A stretch of DNA of 27,426 nt from a virus (Duplodnaviria > Heunggongvirae > Uroviricota > Caudoviricetes), in IMG/VR virus record IMGVR_UViG_2671180885_000001, positions 1 through 27,426 of that record; one strand, 5' to 3'. Position numbers and translations under genes: made by a program. Position 1 is the stretch's first letter. Each line of letters begins with the position of its first letter. This document shows positions 12,695 to 26,649 of this stretch, piece after piece. The notes under the pieces were generated by a model. The model was not told the origin of the DNA. It was given only the letters and a program-made list of their open reading frames with translations, and made no database searches.

Positions 12695-12928
12695 CTAATG
12701 TAACCAGCTGTCGTCCTCCCAGACCTGCTGCATTATTTCCATCACTCGCTTTTTATCTTCATCCAGTTTTAACCCGCTCAGCTCAACGCCGTTGGCACTG
12801 CCCTTACGGATACGAATTGCTGTTTTGGGATACAGAGGGCGCAAATTACGGTAAAGCTCGGATTCAAGGGCGTCCAGTGTAGCCTGGCTAATCTTCTGCT
12901 CTTTATCGATCATTATTTCAATGCGCAT
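12695..12928 (-). CDS. DinI-family protein
   Basis: ORF track 77 aa, MRIEIMIDKEQ...EIMQQVWEDDSWLH, typical DinI length and termini; own RBS AAGGGA. Confidence 0.75.
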   Translation of the reverse strand: MRIEIMIDKEQKISQATLDALESELYRNLRPLYPKTAIRIRKGSANGVELSGLKLDEDKKRVMEIMQQVWEDDSWLH

Positions 12929-12939
12929 ACAGATTTCCC

Positions 12940-13155
12940 TTAACTGGTTACGTCCATTGACCGGCAGTATTCATGGCTGCGGATTTTCGCCATCAGCTCG
13001 TCGGTCAATTCAGACACCCACTGGATAGCCAGCCGCTTTTCTTCGTCGCTGCACTCACTAGCCGCTACAAGCTTAATAAAAAAATCAATGCGCTGGAGCT
13101 TCAACGACTCCAAAAGATAGTCCTGCATCTTCCCTCCTATCACGACCCCGGACAT
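12940..13155 (-). CDS. Small SOS-controlled protein, possible Tum-like antirepressor (start uncertain, alternative ATG at 13128)
   Basis: ORF track 71 aa; directly downstream of a strong LexA box; position matches the 186 tum region downstream of A. Confidence 0.4.
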   Translation of the reverse strand: MSGVVIGGKMQDYLLESLKLQRIDFFIKLVAASECSDEEKRLAIQWVSELTDELMAKIRSHEYCRSMDVTS

Positions 13156-13175: not shown

Positions 13176-13195
13176 CACTGTTTATATATACAGTA
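13176..13195 (-). promoter_or_regulatory. LexA operator (SOS box) overlapping the promoter of the tum-like/dinI-like operon
   Basis: Minus strand TACTGTATATATAAACAGTG, i.e. CTGT-N8-ACAG with AT-rich spacer; overlaps a TATACT -10-like hexamer about 20 bp upstream of the ATG at 13155. Confidence 0.65.
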
Positions 13196-13289: not shown

Positions 13290-15683
13290 TCAGTACCACT
13301 GGCGCCATTTGTCATCTTCCTGCAGTCGATGGTTGCGGTAAAAAATCCGTAGCCCGGCACCTGACGGAATGCTGCCACCACGCAGAAGCAAATCAATCTC
13401 AGATGCACTACCTTCAAACCCTCTGGCAGTCAGTTCTGCCTCAAGCTGCAGGCTCTGCTGCTCCGAAATACTCTGTTTGAATGCTTTTTTCCGCTTCGGT
13501 TTTACCAGTCTTAACCTGGCTGTCAGCTCCCGGCGTTCCTTCTGGCCCATATTGTGGAGGTAATCGTGCAGTTCCTGCTCATTCATGGTTTTAATATCGG
13601 GCAAATCACCCCCTGATTTGTTCAGATTTTCAACAGGGGGACAGTTATTGCCACGAGTCCAAGGGGCGCAAGCGCCCTGGTCGGCTGCCGCCTCCTGAAC
13701 GTCAACGACCTTACGAACCATTTTCCATTTCATTGCATGAGTGCAGATCTTGCCCTGTACAATGGGTGACCAGATGCCATAAATACGAATACCGTGATCG
13801 CCATAAGCGGTCGGCTCTTCGTTAATTTCATAAGCTGTTCTGATAAGGTGATATTTGCGGGGAACCAGTACGCCGCCCTGCTTCATGATGTAGGTGGCAA
13901 AACAGCCAGCATCAGCGGCAGCCAGGATGGCATCAAGGCGCGGGTCATCCAGTACCGGCGCACCTGCTTTTTTGTCACCCTGTTGCCTTGCCGCCTGACC
14001 AGCCAGCAAGCGAAGTTCACGGTACGCCTGACGCCCCGGAATACCAAAGAAGCGGAACTGCTGAACACGATGCAGAGACGCCCAGGCATTAACGTATTCG
14101 GCGTTATCACGCAGGGATTTACCCGTTTCCTTGCTGATCTCGCCAGCCAGACCACGTCCGTCAATGTTCTTACTGATGTATTTCGCGATGTAGCTTGTCG
14201 GCGTTCCTTTGCGCGGGTTTATCAGCTCAGACTTAAAGCGTGGACCAGTGTTATTACCCAGCTCCTCGCGGTCTTCACGAATGGCAAACTTACGCAACAA
14301 AGCAGTAATGGCGCGGCGATCTTTTTTGCGCATAAAACACAACAGGTGCCAGTGAACTGTACCGTCATGATGCGGCTCAGCCACCCGCACGCCATACCAG
14401 CGCAATCCGGCTTTGTGCATCGCCTTACGAAATGCAGCAAACATGCCGACCAGATAATCACTGCTTTGTCTTACCGTCGCATTTGTCCAGGTCGGGTTGG
14501 GCCTGCCGTTATTTAGCGTGGAATGGAAACGTGACGGACAGGTGATGGTGTAGAAAACGGCGCAGTCACCGCGCATTTCCGCGATAAGCTCCAGACCTTT
14601 AACACAGGCCATCATCTCATTGCGGCGATGCGCAGGGTTGCTGCTGCTGGCGTTTACCACATCCTCCATGTCCAGCGTGTCGCCGTCTTCGTTCACCAGT
14701 TCATGAGAACGGAAAAACTCCAGCGACTTACGGCGCTGCTCACGTTTATGCATCACGGCTTCATAGCTGACATAAGGAGATGCTTTTTTGCTGACCAGGC
14801 AGACAGCGCGCAACTGCTCTTCCCGCCATTCGCAACGCATCTTCCATAATTTCCGATACCACCAGTCGGCGCACAACATACGCGCCAGCGAACCCGGAAT
14901 GAGTTCATAGGGCACGGGTTTACGGCGGTTTCTTTTCCGGCGGAGTTGATCAAACGCAGGCGGGATGACATCCAGACGCAGGGTTTCCGCTGCCACCTTT
15001 TCCCATGTCTTGCGGATTTCTTCTGGCTTAACGTCATCGGTGACATACAAATCGCCACAAGCTGCATCAAGGCACATGCTCATATGCGCAGCGACAAGGG
15101 TAGACAAGCGTTTCACCTGCTCCTGACTCATTTCAGGCAGGATCAGCAGGCCGTCCAGCCCTTCATGGCTTGCCATAAAGCGAAAAGAAGTGGATAGCTG
15201 ACTGTCGCGTACATGCTCCAGTCGTTCCAGACATGGCTTAATCGTCTCACGCAAATAGCGGGAATAAGCCTTTGGCCTGCCCAGACTGCTGAAGTATTCA
15301 ATACGTTGCATCAGCGGCTTGCTGATATGGGAAGGCTGGGCGTTAACGTCTGCCAGAATGACCATGTCCGGGTTAAAACGCTGCTGCTCATGCGCCAGCT
15401 TTGCCCGGCTAATGAGCTTATCCTGCTCCATTTCGCGTTGGACAGGATCACGGGATTCATTAAAGAAATAACGCTCCCAGACCTGATCACTCAGTGCCTC
15501 GCGGCGCAGTTGTTCCTGCTCGTTATCGGCAGCGTACAGAGTGATCAGGTTTGAAAGCGCAGAAACCGGCGCAACTTCCGCCGGGTCCAGATAAGGGTTA
15601 ATGGCCTTTTTCGGGCTGTTCCATGAGAATGCTGCGGCGACCTCGTTAAAGCCGCTGCAGTTGTTCATATCATCATGGCTCAT
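13290..15683 (-). CDS. A: Replication initiation endonuclease (P2 gpA-like, rolling-circle HUH-type)
   Basis: ORF track 797 aa; VHWHLL HUH-like motif and YIAKYISK tyrosine motif; ATG overlaps Dam stop. Confidence 0.85.
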
Positions 15684-16537
15684 GCACGCACTCCGTACAT
15701 GGCAGAACTATCCACGCCACGCGAAGGATCAAATCCCACCCAGCAGCGCGCCCCGGAAACAGCAATGATTTCTGTTGCAGATTTACTCTCGCCAGCCGAC
15801 ACGCCGATGCTGCGTTTTGCCTTGATGTAGTGGTGAGTGAAATTGCGATACAGCGAACGAATCAGGGATGTGTCACTGTTAGAAACAATGACCGGATGAC
15901 CTTCAGATGATCGATGTTCAAGAACGGATGCCAGGTGATACTGGTCATCTTCAGTGAAGCCATCAGTGTGATAGCCGGAAAACGTACCGTCATACGGCGG
16001 ATCGCAATACACCACATCCCCCACCTGCAGCATCGCCAGCGTTTCATCAAAGCTTGCGCAGATAAACGTTGCACGCTGGGCTTTCTCTGCAAATGCGCGA
16101 ATTTCTTTTTCAGGGAAATACGGATTTTTATAATTACCGTACGGAATGTTGAAATGCCCGCTCTTGTTATAGCGACATAATCCACGGTAACCATGACGAT
16201 TGAGATACAGGAAATATACCGCTTTCATGAAATCAGTAATTTCAGTGGAGTAATTAAACTCCTGCCTTATGTTGTAATAAGCCACCTCCCTGTTTGCTTC
16301 CTCAAATAAAGCTCTGGCACGAGATATAAACGCCTCGCAATCAGCAGCAACCTTTTTATAGAGGTTGATTAAATCAGGATTAATATCCGCAACAAGATAG
16401 CTGGGGTAATCCGTCTCCATCATCACAGCACAGGAACCCGCGAAAGGTTCAACCAGTCGCGGGCCAGCAGGAAGGTGTTTTTTCAGTTCGGACATAATGG
16501 CGATTTTATTTCCCGCCCATTTCAGGATGGTGCTCAT
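15680..16537 (-). CDS. DNA adenine methyltransferase (Dam family, N6-adenine, probable GATC specificity)
   Basis: ORF track 15680..16597; internal ATG at 16537 ([11 protein letters not shown]) with GGAGG upstream; motifs FAGSCAV (AdoMet binding) and DPPY (catalytic); ATGA overlaps with both neighbours. Confidence 0.8.
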
Positions 16538-16761
16538 ACAGCACCTCCGTTGTAATGTTTGCCTTTCAGCTCTGCAATTTCCTGGCAGGTAATGCAAAGC
16601 TGCACACCCGGAATGGCACGGCGGTGTGCTGGCGGAATTGGCGCTTCACACTCAATGCAAAGCACGCGAGACACGCCCGGTGTTTTGGCACGGGCAGCAC
16701 GGATATGGCGCTGGCGTTCTTCTTCAACGCGCTGCTGTACGAGATCCATTGCATCAGCCAT
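16534..16761 (-). CDS. TraR/DksA-family C4 zinc-finger protein
   Basis: ORF track 75 aa; CIEC...CITC four-cysteine pattern near C-terminus. Confidence 0.65.
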   Translation of the reverse strand: MADAMDLVQQRVEEERQRHIRAARAKTPGVSRVLCIECEAPIPPAHRRAIPGVQLCITCQEIAELKGKHYNGGAV

Positions 16762-17061: not shown

Positions 17062-17403
17062 TTAATTCGGCATGGTTAGCCGTCTGGGAAATAAGCTCAC
17101 CACTGCACGAAAATGATTCATTGCTTTAATCAACTCCCGCTTTTCGTCAGTGGTCAGCTCATTAATGCTGATGCTATGACGTTCAGCTGGAATTTTTGCC
17201 ATAAAGAATATGGCAGCCAGTGCCCGTTTATTTTGTTCGCTATTAATATCCCGTGAATCACGCATATCTTTAATAAACCGCTCAAGCTCTGACTCAATAT
17301 TCAGGCCAAAAACTTTCGCCCTTAACTCCGCAATGTGATTAAGTCCATTCAGGCGTTCACCGGGGCTTAATGGAACAGTCGCCGCAGTGCCTTCAATAGC
17401 CAT
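17062..17403 (-). CDS. Hypothetical protein, somewhat AT-richer than neighbours
   Basis: ORF track 113 aa; in-operon position between B and A. Confidence 0.4.
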   Translation of the reverse strand: MAIEGTAATVPLSPGERLNGLNHIAELRAKVFGLNIESELERFIKDMRDSRDINSEQNKRALAAIFFMAKIPAERHSISINELTTDEKRELIKAMNHFRAVVSLFPRRLTMPN

Positions 17404-17567
17404 TGGTTCCCCCGTTTTTTCGTTGATAGTTCTGCCAGCAATTCATCCTGTGAACGGCACGGATGCCAGCGTTTACCATCCTCACCCATGATCCAGCCGT
17501 GACCGTAGTGCATTGCCGGGCTTTGTTTAACCAGCAGCGATGCAAATGATGGTTCTTTCGTAAGCAT
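17367..17567 (-). CDS. Hypothetical small protein
   Basis: ORF track 17367..17600; internal ATG at 17567 (MLTKEPSF) with GAGGTG upstream, just downstream of the B stop. Confidence 0.35.
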   Translation of the reverse strand: MLTKEPSFASLLVKQSPAMHYGHGWIMGEDGKRWHPCRSQDELLAELSTKKRGNQWLLKALRRLFH

Positions 17568-17574
17568 AAGCACC

Positions 17575-18084
17575 TCACAGCAAACCGAATGAAGCACCAA
17601 GGCCAGTCATGGTATCAACTGCACTCGCCATCGCAGGATTAGCCTGTAAGCGGGCCTGCAATGAAACAGCAGCCAGCGCCATCAGTCGTGTAACAGAGTT
17701 AATGCTGCTGATAGCATCACGACGGCCTGCACTGGTTTTTACATCTCCAGAAACCGCACCTGCCGCGACACGACCTATCTCTGCAGTTGCACTCATGACG
17801 TAATGCGGTAGTTTCTCTTTTGCCACCTCATTAATCGGAACACATGGCAGACAATGAATCTGTGCCAGAAAACCATCTACCAGCGTTGAATCTTCAGTCA
17901 GATCGGTAAGTAGCCAGATATCTGGCGCATTGAGCTGATGCGGTTGATCTGGGTTGAGTTTGTTTCGCAGAGTCTGGACATTCATTCCTGCACGTTCTGC
18001 CAGCTTCGCCATATTGTGACGAAGTGCAAAAGCTCTACAGGCTTCATCAAAATGCGGGTGTTTGGAAATCTTATAATCAAACAT
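17575..18084 (-). CDS. B: Replication protein B (P2 gpB-like, helicase loader)
   Basis: ORF track 169 aa; size and position (between cox-like gene and A) match P2 B. Confidence 0.7.
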   Translation of the reverse strand: MFDYKISKHPHFDEACRAFALRHNMAKLAERAGMNVQTLRNKLNPDQPHQLNAPDIWLLTDLTEDSTLVDGFLAQIHCLPCVPINEVAKEKLPHYVMSATAEIGRVAAGAVSGDVKTSAGRRDAISSINSVTRLMALAAVSLQARLQANPAMASAVDTMTGLGASFGLL

Positions 18085-18116
18085 GCTACCCCCTTAGAAA
18101 GTTCTCATAATTGAAC

Positions 18117-18359
18117 TTACTTACCAACAATGACGCGGAAGTTGGAATGACCGAGGGATTCACGGACCTGATCGGTTTTGTACATTAAATAACGCAGGTT
18201 TACGCGGCCTTTGTTTTTTTCTTTCTTGACCATGTATTTAGCAAGCTGACCATGGTGAATTTTTTGATACACGGAGCCGCGGGAGATACCTTCCCATTCC
18301 GCGAACTCTGCAGGCGTAGCCATCTCTTTTGGTACACGAATTGAAATATCAGTGCTCAT
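18117..18359 (-). CDS. Cox/Apl-like excisionase and transcriptional regulator
   Basis: ORF track 80 aa; HTH-like segment PAEFAEWEGISRGSVYQKIHHGQL; first gene of the early operon, divergent from the repressor. Confidence 0.6.
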   Translation of the reverse strand: MSTDISIRVPKEMATPAEFAEWEGISRGSVYQKIHHGQLAKYMVKKEKNKGRVNLRYLMYKTDQVRESLGHSNFRVIVGK

Positions 18360-18389
18360 AGTGCAGTATCTCCCGATTAAGGTTTGGTT

Positions 18390-18465
18390 TACGTCGTTTT
18401 ATCTCGTTTTACTTGATTCAATATTTGATACATCGAGATACTACGATCCAATATTTGATACGTCA
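18390..18465. promoter_or_regulatory. Lysogeny/lysis switch region with direct-repeat operator candidates
   Basis: Direct repeats CAATATTTGATAC (about 18419 and 18449, 30 bp apart) and TCGTTTTA (twice near 18393-18411) between divergent cox-like and repressor genes. Confidence 0.4.
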
Positions 18466-18478
18466 ACAGGATTAAAAA

Positions 18479-19111
18479 ATGATACAGGTAAAGGTTGGAG
18501 AGAATACAGGGGGAAGAGAGGCTATCCATAGACTAATGGCAGCCTATGATTTCAAGTCCAGACAGCAACTTTGCGATCACTTAGGCGCATCAAAAAGCAC
18601 CATGGCAAACAGATACTTAAGAGATAGTTTTCCTGCAGAGTGGGTGATTCAGTGCGCCTTGGAAACAGGAGTTTCTTTACTGTGGCTAACCACCGGACAG
18701 GGGGAGCCAGGTCCAAACATTGAACCTAAAAAAAATATCAATTCCGTGAACTCCAGCAAGGTTGTACCTCTTTCTGAACTAGTATCTCCTGAAATTGACA
18801 AGGCGACTCTCAACGGTGGTTTATTGGTCGATGCTGGAAAAGCAATCATTGATAGCAGCATACTCCCCTCAGACTCAAGCAACCTACTGCTGGTGACTAC
18901 TTCTGGTGATTCTTATTTAATAGATCGCAACCAAACACCACCAGTAAATGGTATGTGGTTAGTCGATATCGACGGGATAAAAAGCATCGTTAAATTGACT
19001 CGACTCCCGGGAAACAAATTAGTAGTGCATCAGGATGATTCATCGTTTGAGTGCGGTCTGGATGACATTGAGGTAGTAGGCCGCGCACTGAAAATCATTA
19101 AGAGCCTTTGA
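18479..19111 (+). CDS. cI: Immunity repressor, 186 CI-like (N-terminal HTH, C-terminal oligomerisation domain)
   Basis: ORF track 210 aa; far longer than P2 C (about 99 aa) and close to 186 CI (about 190 aa); immediately upstream of int. Confidence 0.65.
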   Translation: MIQVKVGENTGGREAIHRLMAAYDFKSRQQLCDHLGASKSTMANRYLRDSFPAEWVIQCALETGVSLLWLTTGQGEPGPNIEPKKNINSVNSSKVVPLSELVSPEIDKATLNGGLLVDAGKAIIDSSILPSDSSNLLLVTTSGDSYLIDRNQTPPVNGMWLVDIDGIKSIVKLTRLPGNKLVVHQDDSSFECGLDDIEVVGRALKIIKSL

Positions 19112-19112
19112 T

Positions 19113-20132
19113 ATGACCATCAGAAAACAGCCGAACGGAAAATGGTTGTGTGAGTGCTATCCCAATGGACGCAATGGCAAGCGCGTGCGTAAGCAATTTG
19201 CCACGAAAGGCGAAGCCATTGCGTTTGAAAGCTTCACAATGGAAGAAGTGAATAAAAAACCGTGGTTGGGTGAAAAGGATGATCGGCGACGCCTATCAGA
19301 ATTAATTGAGCTTTGGTATTCCCTGTATGGTCAGACACTCGCAGACCCCAAGCGCCTCATGGCGAAACTTAGAATTATCTGTAATGGTCTAGGCGACCCC
19401 ATCGCCTCTGAGCTGACAGCAGGTGATTTCACAAAATATCGGGAAGCCAGATTAAAGGGGGAGGTCCAAAATGAAGACGGTTCGTTCATGTCACCCGTTA
19501 AACCTCGCACAGTTAATCTTGAGCAGCGTAACCTGTCATCGGTGTTCGGTACATTGAAAAAACTAGGGCACTGGTCCGCACCAAACCCGCTGGCAGGGCT
19601 TCCAACCTTCAAAATTGCTGAAGGTGAATTGGCTTTTCTTTCCACGGACGAAATCAAACGCCTGTTGGCTGCATGTGCTGAATCTCAAAGCCCGAGCCTA
19701 CTAATGATTACCAAAATATGCTTAGCTACCGGCGCACGGTGGAGTGAAGCCGAAAAACTGCAGGGCCATCAGTTATCCAAATACCGCATCACTTATACCA
19801 AGACGAAGGGCAAGAAAAACCGTACCGTGCCGATATCTCAGGAGCTGTACAACGAACTTCCTAAAAACCGAGGGAAGTTATTCTCGCCATGCAGAAAAGC
19901 CTTTGAGCGTGCAGTAAAGCGGGCCGGTATTGAGCTTCCAGAGGGTCAATGCACCCATGTATTACGTCATACATTTGCCAGCCATTTTATGATGAACGGA
20001 GGAAACATACTTGTTCTTAAAGAGATTCTCGGTCATACAGATATAAAAATGACAATGGTTTATTCTCATTTTTCCCCAGACCATCTTGAAGATGCCGTTA
20101 CCAAAAACCCTTTACATATGTTAACTATTTGA
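19113..20132 (+). CDS. int: Tyrosine integrase (P2 Int family)
   Basis: ORF track 339 aa; C-terminal catalytic region HVLRHTFAS...LGH...Y; position next to att. Confidence 0.9.
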   Translation: MTIRKQPNGKWLCECYPNGRNGKRVRKQFATKGEAIAFESFTMEEVNKKPWLGEKDDRRRLSELIELWYSLYGQTLADPKRLMAKLRIICNGLGDPIASELTAGDFTKYREARLKGEVQNEDGSFMSPVKPRTVNLEQRNLSSVFGTLKKLGHWSAPNPLAGLPTFKIAEGELAFLSTDEIKRLLAACAESQSPSLLMITKICLATGARWSEAEKLQGHQLSKYRITYTKTKGKKNRTVPISQELYNELPKNRGKLFSPCRKAFERAVKRAGIELPEGQCTHVLRHTFASHFMMNGGNILVLKEILGHTDIKMTMVYSHFSPDHLEDAVTKNPLHMLTI

Positions 20133-20142
20133 GCTTATCAAA

Positions 20143-21363
20143 ATGGATATTAAAAACAAAGTCAATAAAGAAAAGTTATTTGAGAACCATTTAAACTCAT
20201 TATTAAAACAAGTCATTTCCGAACCAAAATTAAACCCTCCACTTATAGTACATAGAGATATAATAAGTGACTTCACTGAACGTTGCGATAAGTATCTAAA
20301 AACAATAATTAAATACAAAAGCAACAATAAAGATGGGATGCCGAATTTTGATGAATTAATCAGCAAAGCTAAGAACATTCAAAATGGAATAACATTATCA
20401 CTTGAAAGTTTTTTATCCGGTGATATCAAGTCAGCATATGACCACTTTGATAAAACATTCTCTGATAACTCAACAATCCAACACATACATCGCATCACTA
20501 CTCCACTCAGTAGCATTTGCAATCATAAAAAACCATTATTTCGAGTTAGAAAAAGTGAAAATCCTCTAACGTCAAGAGATGAAATTTTCCATATTCCATT
20601 CTCCAATAGACATTTTGTTAGTGCACAAAGATATTCAGTCGCTGGCTTACCATGTTTATATCTTGGCACTTCTGTTTATGTTTGTTGGCAGGAGATGGAA
20701 AAACCAGATTTTGACAAGCTTTTTATTTCATCATTTACTACCAGTGAAACTGAATATAAAGTCTTAAACTTTGCATCACAGCTTTTGTTACATCCCTCAC
20801 CAAATTACGCTGACGAAAATAAACTAGCCGAAACAAATAGAGTAAAGGCCTCTTATCTCATTTTCTGGCCTTTAATTATTGCATGTAATTATTTAAAAAA
20901 TCATCGTTCTGCAACATTCATACAAGAGTACATTATCCCTAATTTGTTGATGCAATGGATTAGTAGAAAAACTTACTCGAAAATTGTCGGTGTAGCTTAC
21001 TTCTCTACAAAAATGCCTAATTCACGATTAAGTAACCGCTCAATAAATGTTGTATTTCCACCCAAAGTTACATATGAACAAACGGTAAAACAAAATTTTT
21101 GCCCTAAACTCTCCACATTATTCGACTTTACGCCACCTATTTCGTGGCAGGTCTTAAAAACATTAGATCATTCATCAATAACAGAAAATTCAATAGAATT
21201 GATGATGTCAAAGAGATATCTTCAAAGTCAAGAAAAACTGTCTGGAATTAAAAACTTCGAAGAGGACATTGTAAAACTATACCCCTTAACTGATTTTTAC
21301 AAACTCGAAAGAAGTATTGATATGCTATTTGAATATAAAAAGATAGATAACCCCATACTATAA
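20143..21363 (+). CDS. AT-rich cargo protein of unknown function with RES-domain-like motifs
   Basis: ORF track 406 aa; markedly lower G+C by eye than all flanking phage genes; blocks LFRVRK, RYSVAGLPCLYLGTSVYVCWQEM and GVAYFSTK resemble the Arg, Glu and Ser blocks of RES-domain toxins (from memory, not searched). Confidence 0.55.
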   Translation: MDIKNKVNKEKLFENHLNSLLKQVISEPKLNPPLIVHRDIISDFTERCDKYLKTIIKYKSNNKDGMPNFDELISKAKNIQNGITLSLESFLSGDIKSAYDHFDKTFSDNSTIQHIHRITTPLSSICNHKKPLFRVRKSENPLTSRDEIFHIPFSNRHFVSAQRYSVAGLPCLYLGTSVYVCWQEMEKPDFDKLFISSFTTSETEYKVLNFASQLLLHPSPNYADENKLAETNRVKASYLIFWPLIIACNYLKNHRSATFIQEYIIPNLLMQWISRKTYSKIVGVAYFSTKMPNSRLSNRSINVVFPPKVTYEQTVKQNFCPKLSTLFDFTPPISWQVLKTLDHSSITENSIELMMSKRYLQSQEKLSGIKNFEEDIVKLYPLTDFYKLERSIDMLFEYKKIDNPIL

Positions 21364-21478
21364 AACTGGCGACAAATTGGCGGCAGAACTTTAAAATCAC
21401 ATAAAACAGCCAAACACAAGATAAGACTAATTCACTGATTTAAAAAGTAAATATCTATTTTCACTATAATATAAATGG

Positions 21479-21525
21479 TATGTAGGAATTTCGGACGCGG
21501 GTTCAACTCCCGCCAGCTCCACCAA
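21479..21525 (+). other. Prophage attachment core (attR) = duplicated 3'-terminal about 47 nt of ssrA (tmRNA), ending CCA
   Basis: ATGTAGGAATTTCGGACGCGGGTTCAACTCCCGCCAGCTCCACCA matches the E. coli tmRNA 3' end (T-arm, acceptor stem, CCA); upstream sequence is not ssrA, so this is a partial copy. Confidence 0.8.
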
Positions 21526-21684: not shown

Positions 21685-24600
21685 TCAGAACGACCAGTTC
21701 ACACCAGCTACCGCGTTCCACGGGGATTCCACACCGGCACTATGGCTATACCCCACCCCAAGATGCCCGCTTAACGTACTGCTGAATGAGGCTTTAATAC
21801 CTGCCTGGTATATTCCACGTCTGCCCGACAAATAATTGACGAAATTACCGTCACTATTCACTTTCACCCGGTTATCATCGACAAATTCTTTGCGCACAGC
21901 CGCCTTCAGCCACGGCTCAACTTCCATACCGTTCCCCAGACGCATGTTGTAACTCAGCGTTGCGCCCAGTTCACGATATATACTGCGGGTATCGACTGAT
22001 TTCGATTTCATGCCATTGGATAAATGATATTCGGGGTTATCAGCGGTGAACCCCGTTAACGATGCATACGGCGTCAGGTTCCAGTTACCATCGGTAAATC
22101 GCATCCCGGTTTCAATGTGACCGCCCAGCCCGTTGCTGTGGTAACTGCCATTGGCGGCTCCACCGCTGCTCATTTTACCTGCTACGTTACTTTTAAAACG
22201 GTTCAGCTTCACGACACCGTCCAGATAGAAACCACTTTCATGTTCCCAACTGGCATAGCCGCCCAGAGAATAACTGCCCACACTGCCATATCCTCCGCGA
22301 TCAAAACCGATATGTGAATGGGAATAGCCCATAAAAGCGCCTAGCGTGGTAATTCCTTCAGGAATATCATTACGGCTGTCGATCCCCACTGTCATTCCGG
22401 TCAGCGTCTGCTCAAACCCGGCACCCGCATCGGTGGTGACATTATTACGGGTGTTATACGTCGCCCCCCAGACATTATTGTTGTGTGGACTCGCTTTCAT
22501 TATGTTCAACCGCTCGCGAATACTGTTTAGCTCAGCATCAAATACCAACGGTAATGTTGCTGCCATATTGAGTACGGCTGCCGTAGAAGGCGTAATGCGT
22601 TTCTCCGGAACGGGTGTCGGCGTTGGATCGGGAGTAGGGTCTGGTTTTGGATTTGGGTCTGGCTTTGGATCGGGTTTTGGGTCTGGCTTTGGATTTGGGA
22701 TGGGGTCCGGGTTGGGTTTGACATCATTGGTCAGGTTCCAGTTGCTGTTGCCGTCACTTTTCAGGACATACTCATAGGTCCCAAGATCAACGAAACCGCC
22801 GGTATTGCCCAGCGTAAACGAAGCATCCCCTCCCCCTGTTTTCACCAGCGTCATCGCGTCGTCAGACTGTGGGCTGACGCCGGTATCCTGAACAAAGATT
22901 TTAAAATTACCAGTGGCGTTGTTGTTGACGACCAGTTGATCGCCCCGGGAGCCTGCAACGTTGGTATGCAGGTAGAAATTACCGCTACCGGAAAGTTCAT
23001 TGGTTGTCAGCGTATTGTAGATACCGTTAGTTGTGGCAGGCGCTGCTGTTTGTGCTGACAAATAAACATCACCGTCGTTGAGTAGCAAACTGTTTACTCT
23101 ATATTCGCAGTTGCTGGTACCTGCACAGGAATTATTGCTGTTAAGCCAGACACTGCCCCGGCTGGCAGCCGTCAGGTCGGCAAGCGTGGTATCGACGCCA
23201 TTTCCCAGAGTCAATGTCGCGCTATCGGTAATCCGGACCGCCCCTTCGAGTTTAACTGGCGTAACATTATCCCGTGGCGTCATTAACGACAGGCTTCCTG
23301 TCGCGCCACTGACCGATGCATCCGCCAGCGTACCTGCGTAGACGATTGCCGTACCGCCAGCGACCTGGAGATCTTCTGCCCGGGCCAGAGCCTGAAACTC
23401 ATCTTTTGACCGCCCAAGGGTATATTGCCCGCCAGAGTTAACCTTTGTGGCGGAGTCCTGACCCAGGTTTTGCATTGCCCCACCCTTGCCAACCGTGGAG
23501 TCGCGAGCTTCGGTACCTGCTAATACCAATAAATTACCGCCATTTTCCAGCAACATATTGGTCGCTAAATTGCCGGAAATGGAAAAAGTACCGTACTGGT
23601 GAGTACCGCTGATTTCAATACCGTTAGCCGTGCTCGTCTGGAGAGCGGCACCGCTGTTCTGGACGATATCTGTCGCTTTGCCATTATCGTTGACTGTCAG
23701 CGTACCGCCTTCATTGATCTTTGTTTTTATTGCCTCTCCGTTAGCTGAAACTGTTTGTATTCCGCCGTCGTTAATTGTTGTCTCATTCGCCACACCCTCG
23801 ACAATTTGTTCACCGCCGGTGAGCGTCGTGCCTGTCGCAGTGGCTTTTGTTTTGACGATCTCCCGTCCGCCCATATTGACCTGTGTTTTGTCAGAAGAGG
23901 TGTCTGACTCCACGGTTAACACGCCGCCATTTGCCAGCAGGATATTGTTCGCCGCACCCTGCTCGATGCTGAACGCGACGCCATCCGCGCGTGTTCCTGT
24001 GACCCGCGTCGCCCTGGTGGTTGCAACCAAAGCGCCCTGGCTACTCTGCTGTATCCCCGTTGCGCTGCCTTTCTCCCGCACATCGAGTGTGCCGCCGTCA
24101 TTAAGCACCGAGTTTTCAGCCAGACCGCCCTCATTAACTACCTGTGAACCCCCATTAATAATGGAACCTTCCGCTGTCCCGTTTGCCATAATTTGTTGTA
24201 GGCCAGAGACGATATCGGTATTGATTGCCTTACCATAATTCTGAACGGTTTGCGTGCCACCATTGATGTGTGTTTTCTCTGTTGACCCACCATCAACAAT
24301 TTGTTCACCACTTTCGATATTTGCTTCAGTGGCTAAACCATATACCGTTTGCTTGCCACCTTTGATATTTGCTTTATCAGAAGTGGCACTGGCATATATT
24401 GTTTGGGTGCCAGCACTATTGAGTACAGTGCCAACATCTTTTCCATAAACATCCATTTTGCCGTTGGCATTAATAATCGTGTCAACTGCCCGGGAACCAG
24501 TGACGACTGTTAATGAGCCAGCGTTTTCCAGCACTACATTTTTAGCTTCTGAATTCCTGATGTAGAAAGCATCACCATAACTGTTGGTTCCTTCGATAAG

Positions 24601-26265
24601 TGTTCCGGAGGTCGTGGAAGCAATTAATGCGCCGCCGGATTGTTGCTCAACATGCTTAGCCTCACCACCGTCCTGAACCTCCAGAACGCCGCCATTATTA
24701 AGTCTGGTGCTATCTGTTTTAGCCTCCTTCTGGACAATCAGCTTACCGCCAGTATCAATGGTAGTATTTTTCGCCGAGGTTTTAGCCACTACCGTCAGTT
24801 CGCCGGTATTTTCCAGCACAACATAATTAGCCTCCCCTCCGGTAATAGTGAAGTGAGAGAGCTTGTTGTATCCTTCGATATCAGTCCCTGCACCCGTGTT
24901 GGCAACTAAAGCACTGCCCGTCTCCTGGTTAACCCCATGTGCAATACCGCCGGTATAGACAATCAGCGAGCCTCCGGCGCTAATATTGCTGCCAATTGCC
25001 GTACCATCTTTCTCAACAACCTGCCGGCTCCCGGAGGATATAATTGTTGTGTCAGCTTTCCCGCCGCTTTTGATATTTTGCGTTCCGCTGTTGATATTGG
25101 TGCCTGTGGCTATGCCATAATTATTAATATTCTGTGTGCCACCATTAATTATGGTATTTGTCGCGTTTCCTGCAACATCCATAACCCCGCCATTATCTAT
25201 TCGGGTCGCATCAGCTTTAGCATTGGTTAAAACTGACATTGTTCCTTTATCTTTAATAATCGTCTTGTTTGCCGAACCATATGCGTTTATGTCTAAATGA
25301 CCACCGTTTTCCAGCAACACATTGTCTGCCACGTGATTGTGGATGGAGAATGCACCTTCACTATTCGTACCGCTCACCGTCGTACCGTTAGTGTTAGTTT
25401 TTAAAATTGCACCATCGTGCTGGGTAACATTTGTTGCCGTACCACCACTAACATCAAGCACGCCACCAGAATAAACTTCAATAACATCCGAGGTGCTGGT
25501 GTTATCAACAATTTGCGTGCCACCAGAATAGATATGCGTATTTTTTGCCGTTGACTTACTATTCAGAGACTGAGTTCCGCCTTCAATCGTCGTGTCCAGC
25601 GCACGGCTCTCATATACTCTTTGCTCACCGCCATTTTTAATGGTTGTTGTTTCTACTGTGCTCTGTTCAACATACTGTCGACCACCATTTATGGTTGTGT
25701 TCGTTGCCAGACTTCCTTGTACTACGTCCTGAGAGCCAGACTTATTTATCGTTGTACCATCAGCATGCCCTTGAACTTTTACTATCTGGCTACCACCATC
25801 AATGAGTATTCCATTCGCACTCCCTCCCTCTACGCGTGAAGCACCGCCCTTAATTGTCGTTCCATTGCTGATACCCCCTTTATAAACGTCCTGATTGCCA
25901 CTCTCGATTGTCGTACCTGTGGAAATACCCCCGTCATGAATTGACTGTCTGCCACCGTTAATGGTTGTATTATTAGCCTGCCCCACAAAATTGTTATGAC
26001 TTCCTATATCTTGATATCCACCAGATTCAATAAGACTTCCATTAGATACCCCGCCATGAACATTCTGCTGGCCATGGTTGATAATATGAGTGTTATTTGT
26101 TGTACCTCGTTCATCCACTTTTTGGTTGCCATCTACAGTCTCATCGTTTACCACACCAATAACATTAGTAGTGAAGGCAGCCATCCCGGGCGGGGCATAT
26201 ATCAAGGCAGATATCAATAAGGAAAGTACTGAGCGGCGACAATAATAGGGACTGGTCCTGTTCAT
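21685..26265 (-). CDS. ypjA: AIDA-I-type autotransporter adhesin (YpjA-like): signal peptide, long beta-helical passenger, Pro-rich linker, C-terminal beta-barrel
   Basis: ORF track 21685..26394; start at 26265 (MNRTSPYYCRRSVL) has GAGGA about 8 nt upstream and gives about 1526 aa; repetitive GG/T/N-rich passenger, PNPDPKPDP linker, C-terminus ending NWSF; chromosomal context beside ssrA island end matches K-12 ypjA. Confidence 0.75.
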   Translation of the reverse strand: MNRTSPYYCRRSVLSLLISALIYAPPGMAAFTTNVIGVVNDETVDGNQKVDERGTTNNTHIINHGQQNVHGGVSNGSLIESGGYQDIGSHNNFVGQANNTTINGGRQSIHDGGISTGTTIESGNQDVYKGGISNGTTIKGGASRVEGGSANGILIDGGSQIVKVQGHADGTTINKSGSQDVVQGSLATNTTINGGRQYVEQSTVETTTIKNGGEQRVYESRALDTTIEGGTQSLNSKSTAKNTHIYSGGTQIVDNTSTSDVIEVYSGGVLDVSGGTATNVTQHDGAILKTNTNGTTVSGTNSEGAFSIHNHVADNVLLENGGHLDINAYGSANKTIIKDKGTMSVLTNAKADATRIDNGGVMDVAGNATNTIINGGTQNINNYGIATGTNINSGTQNIKSGGKADTTIISSGSRQVVEKDGTAIGSNISAGGSLIVYTGGIAHGVNQETGSALVANTGAGTDIEGYNKLSHFTITGGEANYVVLENTGELTVVAKTSAKNTTIDTGGKLIVQKEAKTDSTRLNNGGVLEVQDGGEAKHVEQQSGGALIASTTSGTLIEGTNSYGDAFYIRNSEAKNVVLENAGSLTVVTGSRAVDTIINANGKMDVYGKDVGTVLNSAGTQTIYASATSDKANIKGGKQTVYGLATEANIESGEQIVDGGSTEKTHINGGTQTVQNYGKAINTDIVSGLQQIMANGTAEGSIINGGSQVVNEGGLAENSVLNDGGTLDVREKGSATGIQQSSQGALVATTRATRVTGTRADGVAFSIEQGAANNILLANGGVLTVESDTSSDKTQVNMGGREIVKTKATATGTTLTGGEQIVEGVANETTINDGGIQTVSANGEAIKTKINEGGTLTVNDNGKATDIVQNSGAALQTSTANGIEISGTHQYGTFSISGNLATNMLLENGGNLLVLAGTEARDSTVGKGGAMQNLGQDSATKVNSGGQYTLGRSKDEFQALARAEDLQVAGGTAIVYAGTLADASVSGATGSLSLMTPRDNVTPVKLEGAVRITDSATLTLGNGVDTTLADLTAASRGSVWLNSNNSCAGTSNCEYRVNSLLLNDGDVYLSAQTAAPATTNGIYNTLTTNELSGSGNFYLHTNVAGSRGDQLVVNNNATGNFKIFVQDTGVSPQSDDAMTLVKTGGGDASFTLGNTGGFVDLGTYEYVLKSDGNSNWNLTNDVKPNPDPIPNPKPDPKPDPKPDPNPKPDPTPDPTPTPVPEKRITPSTAAVLNMAATLPLVFDAELNSIRERLNIMKASPHNNNVWGATYNTRNNVTTDAGAGFEQTLTGMTVGIDSRNDIPEGITTLGAFMGYSHSHIGFDRGGYGSVGSYSLGGYASWEHESGFYLDGVVKLNRFKSNVAGKMSSGGAANGSYHSNGLGGHIETGMRFTDGNWNLTPYASLTGFTADNPEYHLSNGMKSKSVDTRSIYRELGATLSYNMRLGNGMEVEPWLKAAVRKEFVDDNRVKVNSDGNFVNYLSGRRGIYQAGIKASFSSTLSGHLGVGYSHSAGVESPWNAVAGVNWSF
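22610..22720 (-). repeat. In-frame tandem repeat encoding the (P-D/N-P-K/T) linker of the autotransporter
   Basis: Reiterated GGGTCTGGCTTTGGAT-like units on the plus strand, about 6 bp periodicity. Confidence 0.5.
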
Positions 26266-26649
26266 AAATTTCATCCTCTGAAAAGTGAATACTGAGTAGC
26301 GTTTAAGCGACCTTAGCTTTGCTGCAACATCAGCCCACAGGCACCAGACCAGGGGATTCATCCTGAAGAGACAGCGCAAGTGTATTGTGTTCACCGCTCA
26401 TCAAAGACATCATGATGAAATGATGATATTCCGCATAAGAATGAGGCATTTTTTAAACGCAGTGCGCTGAAGTGTGGTTGGATAAAAAAGTCAATCCATT
26501 CAGGAAATACGGGCGTATTCTTTTCTTTCGACAATGAGGCCGTTGGCAAAATAAAATGATTTACATAATCGTTTCTGATGAATATCTTCTGCTCACATAA
26601 AAATCACACAATAACTTTGAGATCGCAGATTGTTTTACTTTTACAGCAT

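Follow-up and report, generated by a model that had tools for sequence, protein, structure and literature searches.

What kind of repressor switch controls the prophage analysed here, one resembling that of coliphage 186, one resembling that of P2, or a mixture of the two? The question is raised by positions 18360–19111 of a 27,426-bp stretch of DNA (the window), described in an initial annotation as a hybrid immunity region in which a repressor of 186 length is paired with a short Cox/Apl-like gene and direct-repeat operators. The region is the lysis–lysogeny switch of a phage-186/Fels-2-like prophage (Peduoviridae) located at ssrA and most probably operates in the manner of the 186 switch. 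This reading is supported by the gene identities, the location of the lytic promoter pR at the repeats, the statistics of a 13-bp repeat and covariation with the class of CI repressor, with further support from paired Apl arrays, a lysogenic promoter (pL) geometry identical to that of 186, and a LexA box accompanied by a split tum locus. The sequence features on which the annotation was built, a divergent 80-aa gene, a 119-bp spacer and pairs of repeats, are all present.

18479–19111, + strand: cI, 210 aa
18360–18478: cI/apl spacer, 119 bp
18117–18359, − strand: apl, 80 aa, divergent from cI; opens the lytic operon and encodes a Cox/Apl-like excisionase and repressor
17575–18084, − strand: cII, lysogeny-establishment activator, 169 aa (PF06892, E = 4e-43)
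17367–17600, − strand: fil, cell-division inhibitor (PF10893, E = 5e-24), probable start at 17567
19113–20132, + strand: int, tyrosine integrase (Pfam Int_N and Phage_integrase), co-transcribed with cI

Sequence and homology together define two divergent operons, cI–int and apl–cII–fil, an order shared with 186, in which Apl is likewise the first lytic gene. The repressor comprises an N-terminal helix–turn–helix (HTH) domain (Phage_CI_repr, PF07022, E = 5e-31) and a C-terminal domain (Phage_CI_C, PF16452, E = 6e-28) separated by a long linker. Its homology to 186 CI extends over both domains (33% identity over 193 aa, residues 14–206 aligned, E = 5e-36), albeit with a linker 18 aa longer; it matches PDB entry 2FJR (E = 1.5e-27), and its C-terminal domain is homologous to PDB 2FKD (E = 7e-14). 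P2 C, in contrast, is a 99-aa single-domain protein, and only 62 aa of the HTH match it (E = 1e-4), bearing out the earlier likening of this CI to that of 186 and not to P2 C. The partner protein is a homologue of 186 Apl, as had been suggested, with 30% identity over its full length (E = 3e-13) and matches to phrog_6912 (excisionase, 4e-39) and phrog_575 (Cox-like, 2e-27; PHROG ‘Cox-like excisionase and repressor’), while P2 Cox is matched weakly (E = 0.003).

Directly after apl lie cII and fil: the cII product shares 70% identity with 186 CII (E = 8e-98) and the fil product 82% with 186 Fil across 50 aa; the int product is 55% identical to 186 Int. The proposal that the early operon lacks cII, fil and dhr therefore stands for dhr alone, which is replaced by a gene for a DUF5347 protein. 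P2 has neither cII nor fil, its early operon being cox–orf78–B. In these homology comparisons all components are of the 186 type, and the ‘hybrid’ description has to be given up, as no part of the region is of the P2 type.

18438–18466, − strand: pR, lytic promoter (−35 TTGACG at 18466..18461, 17-bp spacer, −10 TAGTAT at 18443..18438)
18341–18369, + strand: pL, predicted lysogenic promoter (−35 TTGAAA at 18341–46, inside apl; 17-bp spacer; −10 CAGTAT at 18364–69)

The strong lytic promoter pR, a 9/12 match in a promoter scan, falls exactly at the repeats and is directed toward apl–cII–fil; its frame, TTGAC-17-TAnnnT, is found in all related CI classes. Facing it, the predicted pL is directed toward cI–int, with the two start sites about 54 bp apart (62 bp in 186). 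Face-to-face promoters, expected 40–60 bp apart in a 186-type switch, are a feature of both the 186 and the P2 switches, the latter also employing a Cox-type protein as dual excisionase and repressor (PMC3448106, PMC1904268). Relative to the apl ATG, pL has the geometry of the annotated 186 pL, is invariant in relatives and has AGTATCTC in common with the pR −10 region; it lies under the threshold of the consensus promoter scan, which counts against our reading. Transcription from pL would express cI and int, and shut-off of pR by CI would relieve pL from convergent-transcription interference. A search of positions 17900–18700 against Rfam found no RNA families.

18445–18461: O-proximal, candidate CI operator GATCCAA-TAT-TTGATAC (17 bp, 7-3-7)
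18415–18431: O-distal, candidate CI operator GATTCAA-TAT-TTGATAC (17 bp)

Central to the switch is the 13-mer CAATATTTGATAC, which has exactly two copies in the window (18419–18431 and 18449–18461), 30 bp apart from start to start. A repeat search extends the copies to 20 nt (18415–18434 and 18445–18464) at 90% identity (18/20), and an exact 13-mer repeat appeared in 0.015% of 20,000 shuffles of the spacer (chance 1.5e-4). Each 13-mer forms the right-hand part of a 17-bp dyad site, GATYCAA-TAT-TTGATAC. Containing the second 13-mer, the palindrome ATCCAATATT/AATATTTGAT and the only GATC of the region, O-proximal fills the 17-bp pR spacer; O-distal contains the first 13-mer and lies across the start of pR, from about +1 to +17. 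Sites of the same 17-bp, 7-3-7 type lie over pR in 186. Judged from sequence, the 13-mers read best as CI operators, and this is their most likely role: CI dimers would occupy two dyad operators, GATYCAA-N3-TTGATAC, whose 30-bp spacing corresponds to about three helical turns and would thus place both on the same face of the DNA, and, since the operators lie over the pR spacer and start site, RNA polymerase would be kept off pR.

Conservation was assessed in 10 same-class sequences (nine relatives), whose spacers are 95% identical overall, so phylogenetic footprinting is of limited power here. O-proximal is nearly invariant, varying only at its centre position 18453 (A or T), and in O-distal the arms TCAA and T.G are invariant, with variation in the centre triplet and the terminal TAC. 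That overall identity, which makes conservation alone weak evidence, also lends something to the idea that the repeats have no repressor function and represent either a local duplication or AT-rich sequence that accompanies the promoter and was retained by descent. We consider this scarcely credible given the precision with which the repeats overlie the pR spacer and start site, the conservation of arms around a variable centre, the low chance probability of the repeat and the equivalence of these positions to class-specific palindromes of sister phages.

These palindromes emerge from a comparison across CI classes, in which the apl-proximal half of the spacer is constant alongside a near-identical Apl and the cI-proximal half is swapped class by class. 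Dyad 17-mers of the sister classes start −62/−64 and/or −32/−34 from the cI ATG: both offsets are occupied in one Enterobacteriaceae prophage (locus L028), only the upstream one in three Fels-2-class prophages and only the downstream one in Cartapus, with no dyad 17-mer scored at these offsets in Fels-2 itself or in ST437phi4.1. For Fels-2, a distal site of the form TTCA-N5-TGAA was refuted by its relatives, in which the conserved element is GGTTTG-N5-CAAACC.

Whether a CI of 186 length could instead act on two head-to-tail direct repeats, as P2 C does on O1/O2, giving a new kind of immunity, turns on the architecture of the individual sites. The two copies do share orientation and 18 of 20 positions, and one lies in the lytic promoter spacer with the other just downstream of the −10, as in P2, where two same-orientation repressor sites flank the lytic −10; TGATAC or AGATAC also recurs on the same strand at 18426, 18436, 18456 and 18480. 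P2 O1/O2 GTTTAGAT, however, are direct repeats of 8 bp, non-palindromic and spaced by 22 bp, with no internal dyad in their half-sites, and here each copy has one. Relatives keep the dyad arms, not the distal TAC or the centre; the third site of this kind, within cI (below), retains the dyad core only; sister CI classes carry plainly palindromic 17-mers at the same offsets; CI is homologous to a structurally known dimer-of-HTH protein; and, with cII and fil present, nothing else about the region is P2-like. We accordingly regard such a hybrid as improbable. The ‘direct-repeat operators’ of the initial annotation are better described as internally dyad 17-mers, in which the dyad, not the 13-mer, is conserved.

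In two respects the assignment of the dyad 17-mers to CI fits 186 imperfectly, both counted against it: clear pR operators number two here and three in 186, and their spacing is 30 bp rather than about 20 bp. A possible third pR site, GGATTAAAAAATGATAC (18469–18485), lies over the cI start but is weak, being 11/17 identical to O-distal with a position weight matrix score below 9, and the cI ribosome site and start codon confound its reading. Three further candidates were discarded. An ATCG...CGAT palindrome between the repeats (18432–18447) has arms that are not kept in Kp4845-2 or MLG42. The element GCAATCATTGATAG (18842–18855) has one mismatch to the SEN8 operator, yet it lies within conserved AIID codons, its arms are absent from SopEΦ and Enterobacter, and it is unsupported as a fourth site. 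Within apl, ATTTTTTGATAC (18259) is a half-site only, identical across CI classes because Apl is identical.

18375–18411, + strand: candidate Apl operator array in the pL–pR interval (GATTAA, GGTTTA, GTTTTA, GTTTTA; 10–11-bp phasing)
21385–21427, − strand: second phased GTTTTA-type array, candidate Apl excisionase sites (GTTTGG, GTTTTA, ATTTTA), adjoining the att core
21367–21386, − strand: TTGTCGCCA and CTGCCGCCA, a pair of Int arm-type repeats at 11-bp spacing
21480–21524, + strand: att core, duplicated ssrA (tmRNA) 3′ end, int-side prophage–host junction

A second kind of repeat occupies the pL side of the spacer. The 8-mer TCGTTTTA has exact copies at 18394 and 18404, a spacing of 10 bp. 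When one mismatch is allowed, the window contains 21 occurrences against an expected 19, which is no enrichment; the significance of the 8-mer comes from phasing only. Both units belong to the switch array, which has the best phased-array score in the window (21/24; shuffle maximum, 18), followed by the array beside att (20/24), and the same two loci rank best in five of five complete relatives. 186 Apl is described as using 6-bp direct repeats at 10–11 bp, with seven between pR and pL and five at attP (PMC7498355), a layout that the two candidate arrays match in their location at switch and att, although the switch here has about four units. From this pattern the TCGTTTTA units most likely serve Apl and the 13-mers CI, two repeat kinds for two proteins.

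The roles might also be swapped or shared, with the 13-mers being Apl or CII sites, or the TCGTTTTA units CI sites: both repeat kinds lie within one 119-bp spacer, and 186 CI in its wrapping also touches pL-side DNA weakly. This is very improbable, as conservation of the GTTTTA array follows Apl across changes of CI and the half of the spacer with the 13-mers changes with CI while Apl is constant. A second GTTTTA array at att, in the window and five of five relatives, is moreover what is expected of an excisionase, and the 13-mer motif has no copy near att; phased hexamers at 10–11 bp also suit the published mode of Apl. On the preferred assignment, Apl, a monomeric recombination directionality factor, would bind cooperatively to the approximately four GTTTTA-type hexamers at 18375–18411 and also to the array at 21385–21427, damping both promoters and directing excision.

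Beside the second array, TTGTCGCCA and CTGCCGCCA agree with the 186-type arm consensus tgccGCCActt (PMC3448106). The att core gives a partial Rfam tmRNA match (E = 7.5e-11) that extends to 21524 and falls short of the gathering score, which is the expectation for a fragment; the window contains no complete tRNA or tmRNA gene. Integration at ssrA, reported also for SopEΦ (PMC3448106), distinguishes this prophage from 186, which resides at ileY. A 406-aa cargo protein has no match in Pfam, PADLOC or NCBIfam.

The ssrA attachment site, candidate counterparts of the 186 flanking sites FL and FR, and the LexA box with split tum may round out a 186-style circuit.

18710–18726: FL-like candidate CI site in the linker-coding region of cI (GGTCCAA-ACA-TTGAACC)
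18101–18117: 17-mer at the FR position, at the apl stop and apl/cII junction (GTTCTCA-TAA-TTGAACT)
13176–13195, − strand: LexA (SOS) box TACTGTATATATAAACAGTG, upstream of the tum-like operon
12695–13128, − strand: split tum, with a 62-aa TumA-like candidate antirepressor (12940–13128) and a DinI-like protein (12695–12928)

In 186 itself, CI is a wheel of seven dimers that wraps DNA. Annotated 186 FL and FR, about 300 bp from pR, are, like the pR sites, 17-bp 7-3-7 dyads, and they have positional counterparts here in the cI linker and the apl/cII junction. The motif YCAA-N3-TTGR occurs at only three sites in 27 kb, all within 300 bp of one another; two are the pR operators and the third is the FL-like candidate, which parallels 186 FL in position and has a core that 8 of 10 same-class sequences retain even though amino acids change (the chance of one such site within cI is 0.046). 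The 17-mer at the FR position overlaps the CATAAT −10 of a predicted CII-dependent promoter, pE, in the same place as FR and pE in 186. The counterpart of the annotated 186 CII binding site of pE is formed by the first 28 nt of cII (18057–18084), and CII would activate pE at this 5′ end to establish lysogeny. These two 17-mers, weaker relatives of the pR operators about 280–330 bp to either side, may act as FL and FR do in 186, for a multimeric CI. The FR-position 17-mer has 0–1 mismatch in all CI classes and a second copy at the late-activator promoter pB in complete relatives; as neither varies with CI class, they may not be CI sites. Outside the window, pB carries a palindrome, TCTCAATATTGA, that is the same in every CI class of the complete relatives, so covariation at pB gives no class-specific support.

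The LexA box is canonical and follows gene A, which is also where 186 has its annotated p95/LexA site and a LexA-controlled tum locus. In 186 tum is a single gene; the split arrangement, a 62-aa protein plus DinI, has been described for Fels-2 and PSP3 (PMC3121763). The DinI-like protein (Pfam DinI, E = 9e-24) shares 41% identity with the C-terminal half of 186 Tum, and no similarity to the N-terminal half is detectable for the 62-aa protein or in a comparison with the 71-aa ORF. This protein, 87–100% identical in Fels-2, SEN8, SopEΦ, Cartapus, MLG42 and ST437phi4.1, is a candidate TumA-like antirepressor by synteny with Fels-2 and PSP3, and SOS induction would proceed through its LexA-controlled expression and without cleavage of CI.

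How distinct, then, is the immunity type? The operator sequences differ from those of both reference phages (YCAA-N3-TTGA here; TTCAC-N5-GTGAA, or the 186 pR sites, in 186), so the DNA specificity is very probably unlike either, as had been supposed; from sequence it appears to match the SopEΦ/SEN8/Kp4845-2 class, to differ from that of 186 and to bear no relation to that of P2. Against our reading, the Fels-2 class has the identical CI recognition helix, SKSTMANRYLRD, together with a different pR operator. The class itself is not new, contrary to what a distinct type might suggest. SopEΦ, a virulence-gene-carrying Salmonella phage (AY319521), SEN8 (NC_047753), vB_YpM_MLG42 and Klebsiella Kp4845-2 belong to the same predicted immunity class; their 119-bp spacer is free of indels, and the offsets of the two operators, the Apl array and the site inside cI are unchanged. 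They differ by point changes in the operator centres and carry a different cargo gene in the interval from int to att; the right arm of the distal site is degenerate in SopEΦ, and MLG42 and SopEΦ have another Apl C terminus. Phages of the P2 group are taken to share immunity when repressor identity is at least 95% and the spacer is alignable (PMC3448106). By this measure whole-CI identity is 95% for Kp4845-2, 90% for SEN8, 86% for MLG42 and 85% for SopEΦ, with spacers that align without gaps and operator cores that are kept; the N-terminal domains of these four CI proteins are 96–99% identical and the HTH 100%. In addition, 49 complete E. coli genomes carry the module at 95% identity or more.

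As a standard 186/Fels-2-type switch, whose exact module is present in named phages and dozens of E. coli genomes, the locus has small value as a discovery. No binding data for this CI class and no mapped operators for this immunity class were found in the searchable literature, and the value lies in a sequence-level operator map of the class, with two candidate CI operators, Apl arrays and FL/FR candidates.

Some features recur among Fels-2-like CI classes that differ in their pR operators. These classes appear to share an almost identical recognition helix, SKSTMANR-x-LRD, and a near-identical 62-aa TumA-like candidate antirepressor and Apl; they also have a common 17-mer, GTTCTCA-N3-TTGAAyw, at pE and pB. 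Should these shared 17-mers be real CI sites, heteroimmune repressors would repress one another's pE and pB, and a single SOS signal would suffice to induce all of the prophages, a proposal that we hold to be unlikely; if it is true, pR operator specificity would be set outside the recognition helix, for example in the N-terminal arm or helix 2. The shared helix, candidate antirepressor and accessory sites may be of interest for research on the 186 switch and on prophage cross-talk. The window class alone builds its pR operators from the ‘TTCAA’ half-site of the shared pE/pB 17-mers.

It is essentially certain that the immunity region is a switch of the 186/Fels-2 type. At its core are the CI repressor gene and, divergent from it, the gene of a Cox/Apl-like protein, separated by a 119-bp spacer (18360–18478):

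18479–19111, plus strand: cI, ATG-initiated ORF, 210 aa
18117–18359, minus strand: apl, 80-aa ORF divergent from cI

This layout is as described in the initial annotation. CI carries the Pfam domains Phage_CI_repr and Phage_CI_C, and aligns with 186 CI over residues 14–206 (33% identity, E 5e-36); it also matches the crystal structures of 186 CI, 2FJR and 2FKD, and by homology it may assemble into the CI wheel. The 80-aa protein can be aligned with 186 Apl over its whole length (30%, E 3e-13) and belongs to the PHROG excisionase and Cox-like excisionase/repressor families. In RefSeq E. coli genomes (matches H81–H92) and some phage records this Apl homologue is labelled ‘Rha family transcriptional regulator’, which, given its 186 Apl homology and Cox-like excisionase PHROGs, looks like a misnomer. 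Matches to P2 are marginal and local, both for P2 C with CI (E 1e-4 over 62 aa) and for P2 Cox with the Apl homologue (E 0.003 over 44 aa), and the region lacks what defines a P2-type switch. With no P2-type component, the region is not the hybrid that had been proposed; by every testable sequence criterion, its switch is assigned to the 186-type family, and it most likely operates as the members of that family do.

Directly after apl is cII (169 aa, 70% identical to 186 CII) and, in the same stretch, fil (82% identity with 186 Fil in a 50-aa alignment). Next come DUF5347, DUF2732, a DksA/TraR zinc-finger protein, a Dam methylase and replication gene A. The supposed loss of cII, fil and dhr thus holds for dhr, the sole member of this 186 early gene set with no counterpart here, but not for the other two. 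Int shares 55% identity with its 186 counterpart.

Within the 186-type family, the switch belongs to the already sequenced and known SopEΦ/SEN8/Kp4845-2 class, and is not a new immunity type as had been suggested. Its 1.7 kb share 91% identity with Klebsiella prophages (Kp4845-2), 86% with Salmonella phage SEN8, 81% with Yersinia phage MLG42 and 80% with SopEΦ; the corresponding CI identities are 95, 90, 86 and 85%, with 96–99% in the N-terminal domain and 100% in the helix-turn-helix. Equal in architecture (210-aa CI, 79–82-aa Apl, 116–122-bp spacer) are Fels-2, Cartapus/RE2010 and ST437phi4.1, whose CI proteins are only 52–58% identical to that of the window. Among 5,426 complete E. coli genomes, the apl–spacer–cI module is present at an identity of at least 99% in 19 and at least 95% in 49. 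Nilsson and Haggård-Ljungquist had already noted that SopEΦ and Fels-2 have a longer CI linker, and describe the CI immunity classes as little studied (PMC3448106); as far as the literature is searchable, we found no experimental operator mapping for the SopEΦ/SEN8/Kp4845-2 class.

Exact search of the window confirmed two copies of the 13-mer CAATATTTGATAC, 30 bp apart, at 18419 and 18449. Such an exact 13-mer repeat arises in only 0.015% of spacer shuffles. A repeat search lengthened the copies to 20 nt (18415–18434 and 18445–18464; 90% identity, spacing 30) and detected a palindrome within the extended copy. A promoter scan locates the lytic promoter pR here, a minus-strand sigma-70 promoter directed into apl (TTGACG-17-TAGTAT, 18466..18438). 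The cI-proximal repeat fills its 17-bp spacer, and the distal repeat begins seven bases past the −10 element, so that the start site is covered. Extended four bases leftward, the 13-mers become GATTCAA-TAT-TTGATAC and GATCCAA-TAT-TTGATAC, both in the 7-3-7 dyad frame of the annotated 17-bp flanking CI sites of 186, FL and FR. At the distal site, ten same-class sequences from six genera have invariant TCAA and T.G arms and a variable centre triplet (TAT, TAA, CAT, AAG) and distal TAC; evidently, the unit under conservation is the dyad and not the 13-mer.

From one CI class to another, the half of the spacer next to apl is constant alongside a near-identical Apl, and the half next to cI has been exchanged for different sequence. 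Class-specific dyad 17-mers begin −62/−64 and/or −32/−34 from the cI ATG: ATTCCCATTGCGGGAAT and GATCACTTTAAGTGGTC in an Enterobacteriaceae prophage (locus L028), GGTTTGTTTTTCAAACC or a close variant in three Fels-2-class prophages, and GATCTTGATTCAAGATT in Cartapus. Fels-2 itself and ST437phi4.1 have no dyad 17-mer at the threshold used. The class of the window is peculiar solely in having nearly the same 17-mer at both positions, hence the direct-repeat appearance. Mainly on the basis of this covariation with CI class and the placement at pR, the operator role proposed for the repeats is favoured, with the dyad in place of the 13-mer. The recognition helix in the Fels-2 class is identical to that of the window CI and its pR operator is different; specificity would therefore lie in residues outside the helix, or the operator assignment is incomplete in one class.

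A single GATC (18445–18448) lies within the cI-proximal operator, in the pR spacer just upstream of −10. Its position is kept in every CI class examined (loci L002–L008 and L017–L028), though the surrounding operator differs. The phage encodes a Dam methylase (15680–16540, PF02086), and repressor binding or pR activity is possibly methylation-sensitive.

The second repeat of the spacer, TCGTTTTA, is present in exact copies at 18394 and 18404, 10 bp apart, as had been noted. Every window position, on either strand, was scored for sets of four GTTTTA-like hexamers spaced 10–11 bp apart. The top locus is 18375–18411 (21/24; GATTAA, GGTTTA, GTTTTA, GTTTTA) and the runner-up 21427..21385 on the minus strand (20/24), against a maximum of 18 in shuffled sequence. 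The second array is 55–95 bp from the att core and adjoins two 186-type Int arm repeats. In SEN8, Fels-2, Cartapus, SopEΦ and MLG42, too, the switch and the att side are the top two loci. The arrangement fits what is published for 186 Apl, whose 6-bp direct repeats, spaced by one helical turn, number seven between pR and pL and five at attP (PMC7498355). The switch array is, moreover, kept together with Apl where CI differs, and the TCGTTTTA repeats are therefore predicted to be Apl sites and not part of the repressor operator. Quite probably, the 17-mers serve as CI operators that block pR, and the phased hexamers as Apl sites.

Facing pR is the putative lysogenic promoter pL:

18341–18369, plus strand: pL, TTGAAA-17-CAGTAT, at the same position relative to the apl ATG as annotated 186 pL

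The two promoters share an identical octamer, AGTATCTC (−10 plus discriminator; 18365–18372 and 18435–18442), forming a perfect inverted repeat 62 nt apart; their start sites would be ~54 bp apart, compared with 62 bp in 186. pL is invariant in relatives and too weak for the promoter scanner, as would be expected if its activity requires pR to be off. An imperfect inverted repeat of 18 nt, with 78% complementarity, has one arm in the Apl array (18394–18411) and the other in the pR −10 region (18429–18446); both arms are in the ~100-nt pL leader and could form a stem, which matched no Rfam family.

Two further dyads are candidate flanking CI sites:

18710–18726, inside cI: FL-like site GGTCCAA-ACA-TTGAACC, with a YCAA-N3-TTGR core
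18101–18117, apl stop at the apl–cII junction: FR-position 17-mer GTTCTCA-TAA-TTGAACT (GTTCTCATAATTGAACT)

The window has three instances of the degenerate core YCAA-N3-TTGR (~1.5 expected), at the two operators and at 18713 in the linker-coding part of cI; the chance of one inside cI is 0.046. Of 10 same-class sequences, 8 retain the core inside cI, including Tatumella despite changed encoded residues, and at the equivalent place Cartapus cI has a perfect 17-bp palindrome. The position of the site in the window, ~280 bp from the pR operators, is analogous to that of 186 FL. The second 17-mer, at the 186 FR position, covers a CATAAT fitting the −10 of the CII-dependent promoter pE. All CI classes keep this 17-mer with 0–1 mismatch, and a close copy (GTTCTCAATATTGAA) is found at pB, in the D–ogr spacer, in all complete relatives examined (L009, L011–L015), whatever their CI class; 186 has CI sites at both of these places. 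As the apl/cII 17-mer does not covary with CI, both flanking sites are kept as candidates only, through which CI might, by homology, form FL/FR-like loops.

Downstream of gene A and upstream of a split tum/dinI operon is a near-consensus LexA box:

13195..13176, minus strand: LexA box TACTGTATATATAAACAGTG

SOS-inducibility without repressor cleavage is therefore predicted. Past the box are a 62-aa ORF (12940–13128, minus strand) and a DinI-like ORF with 41% identity to the C-terminal half of 186 Tum. A split tum is known in Fels-2 and PSP3, and in PSP3 the upstream gene is an antirepressor (PMC3121763). The 62-aa protein has no similarity to the 186 Tum N terminus in our comparison; by homology, it may act in TumA antirepression. 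It is 87–100% identical over all Fels-2-like CI classes, and the CI recognition helix (residues 38–49) is nearly identical in classes with differing pR operators. This suggests one antirepressor common to heteroimmune relatives, with possible cross-induction.

The int-side prophage end is marked by 45 bp duplicated from the 3′ end of ssrA (21480–21524), the gene at which Fels-2 and SopEΦ are reported to integrate (PMC3448106). The window contains no full tmRNA gene; the intact ssrA must therefore sit past the other prophage end. Adjoining att is a host gene for a 1569-aa AIDA/pertactin-type autotransporter (21685–26394, minus strand). Between int and the att core is a cargo gene (20143–21363, plus strand; 406 aa), whose product has no match in Pfam, PADLOC or NCBIfam, is assigned to phrog_7835 and shares 46% identity with Cartapus gp33 (annotated ‘putative RES protein’). 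In other E. coli this spot holds an anti-phage dCTP deaminase, an HNH endonuclease or hypothetical genes, and it therefore looks like a variable defence-type hotspot.
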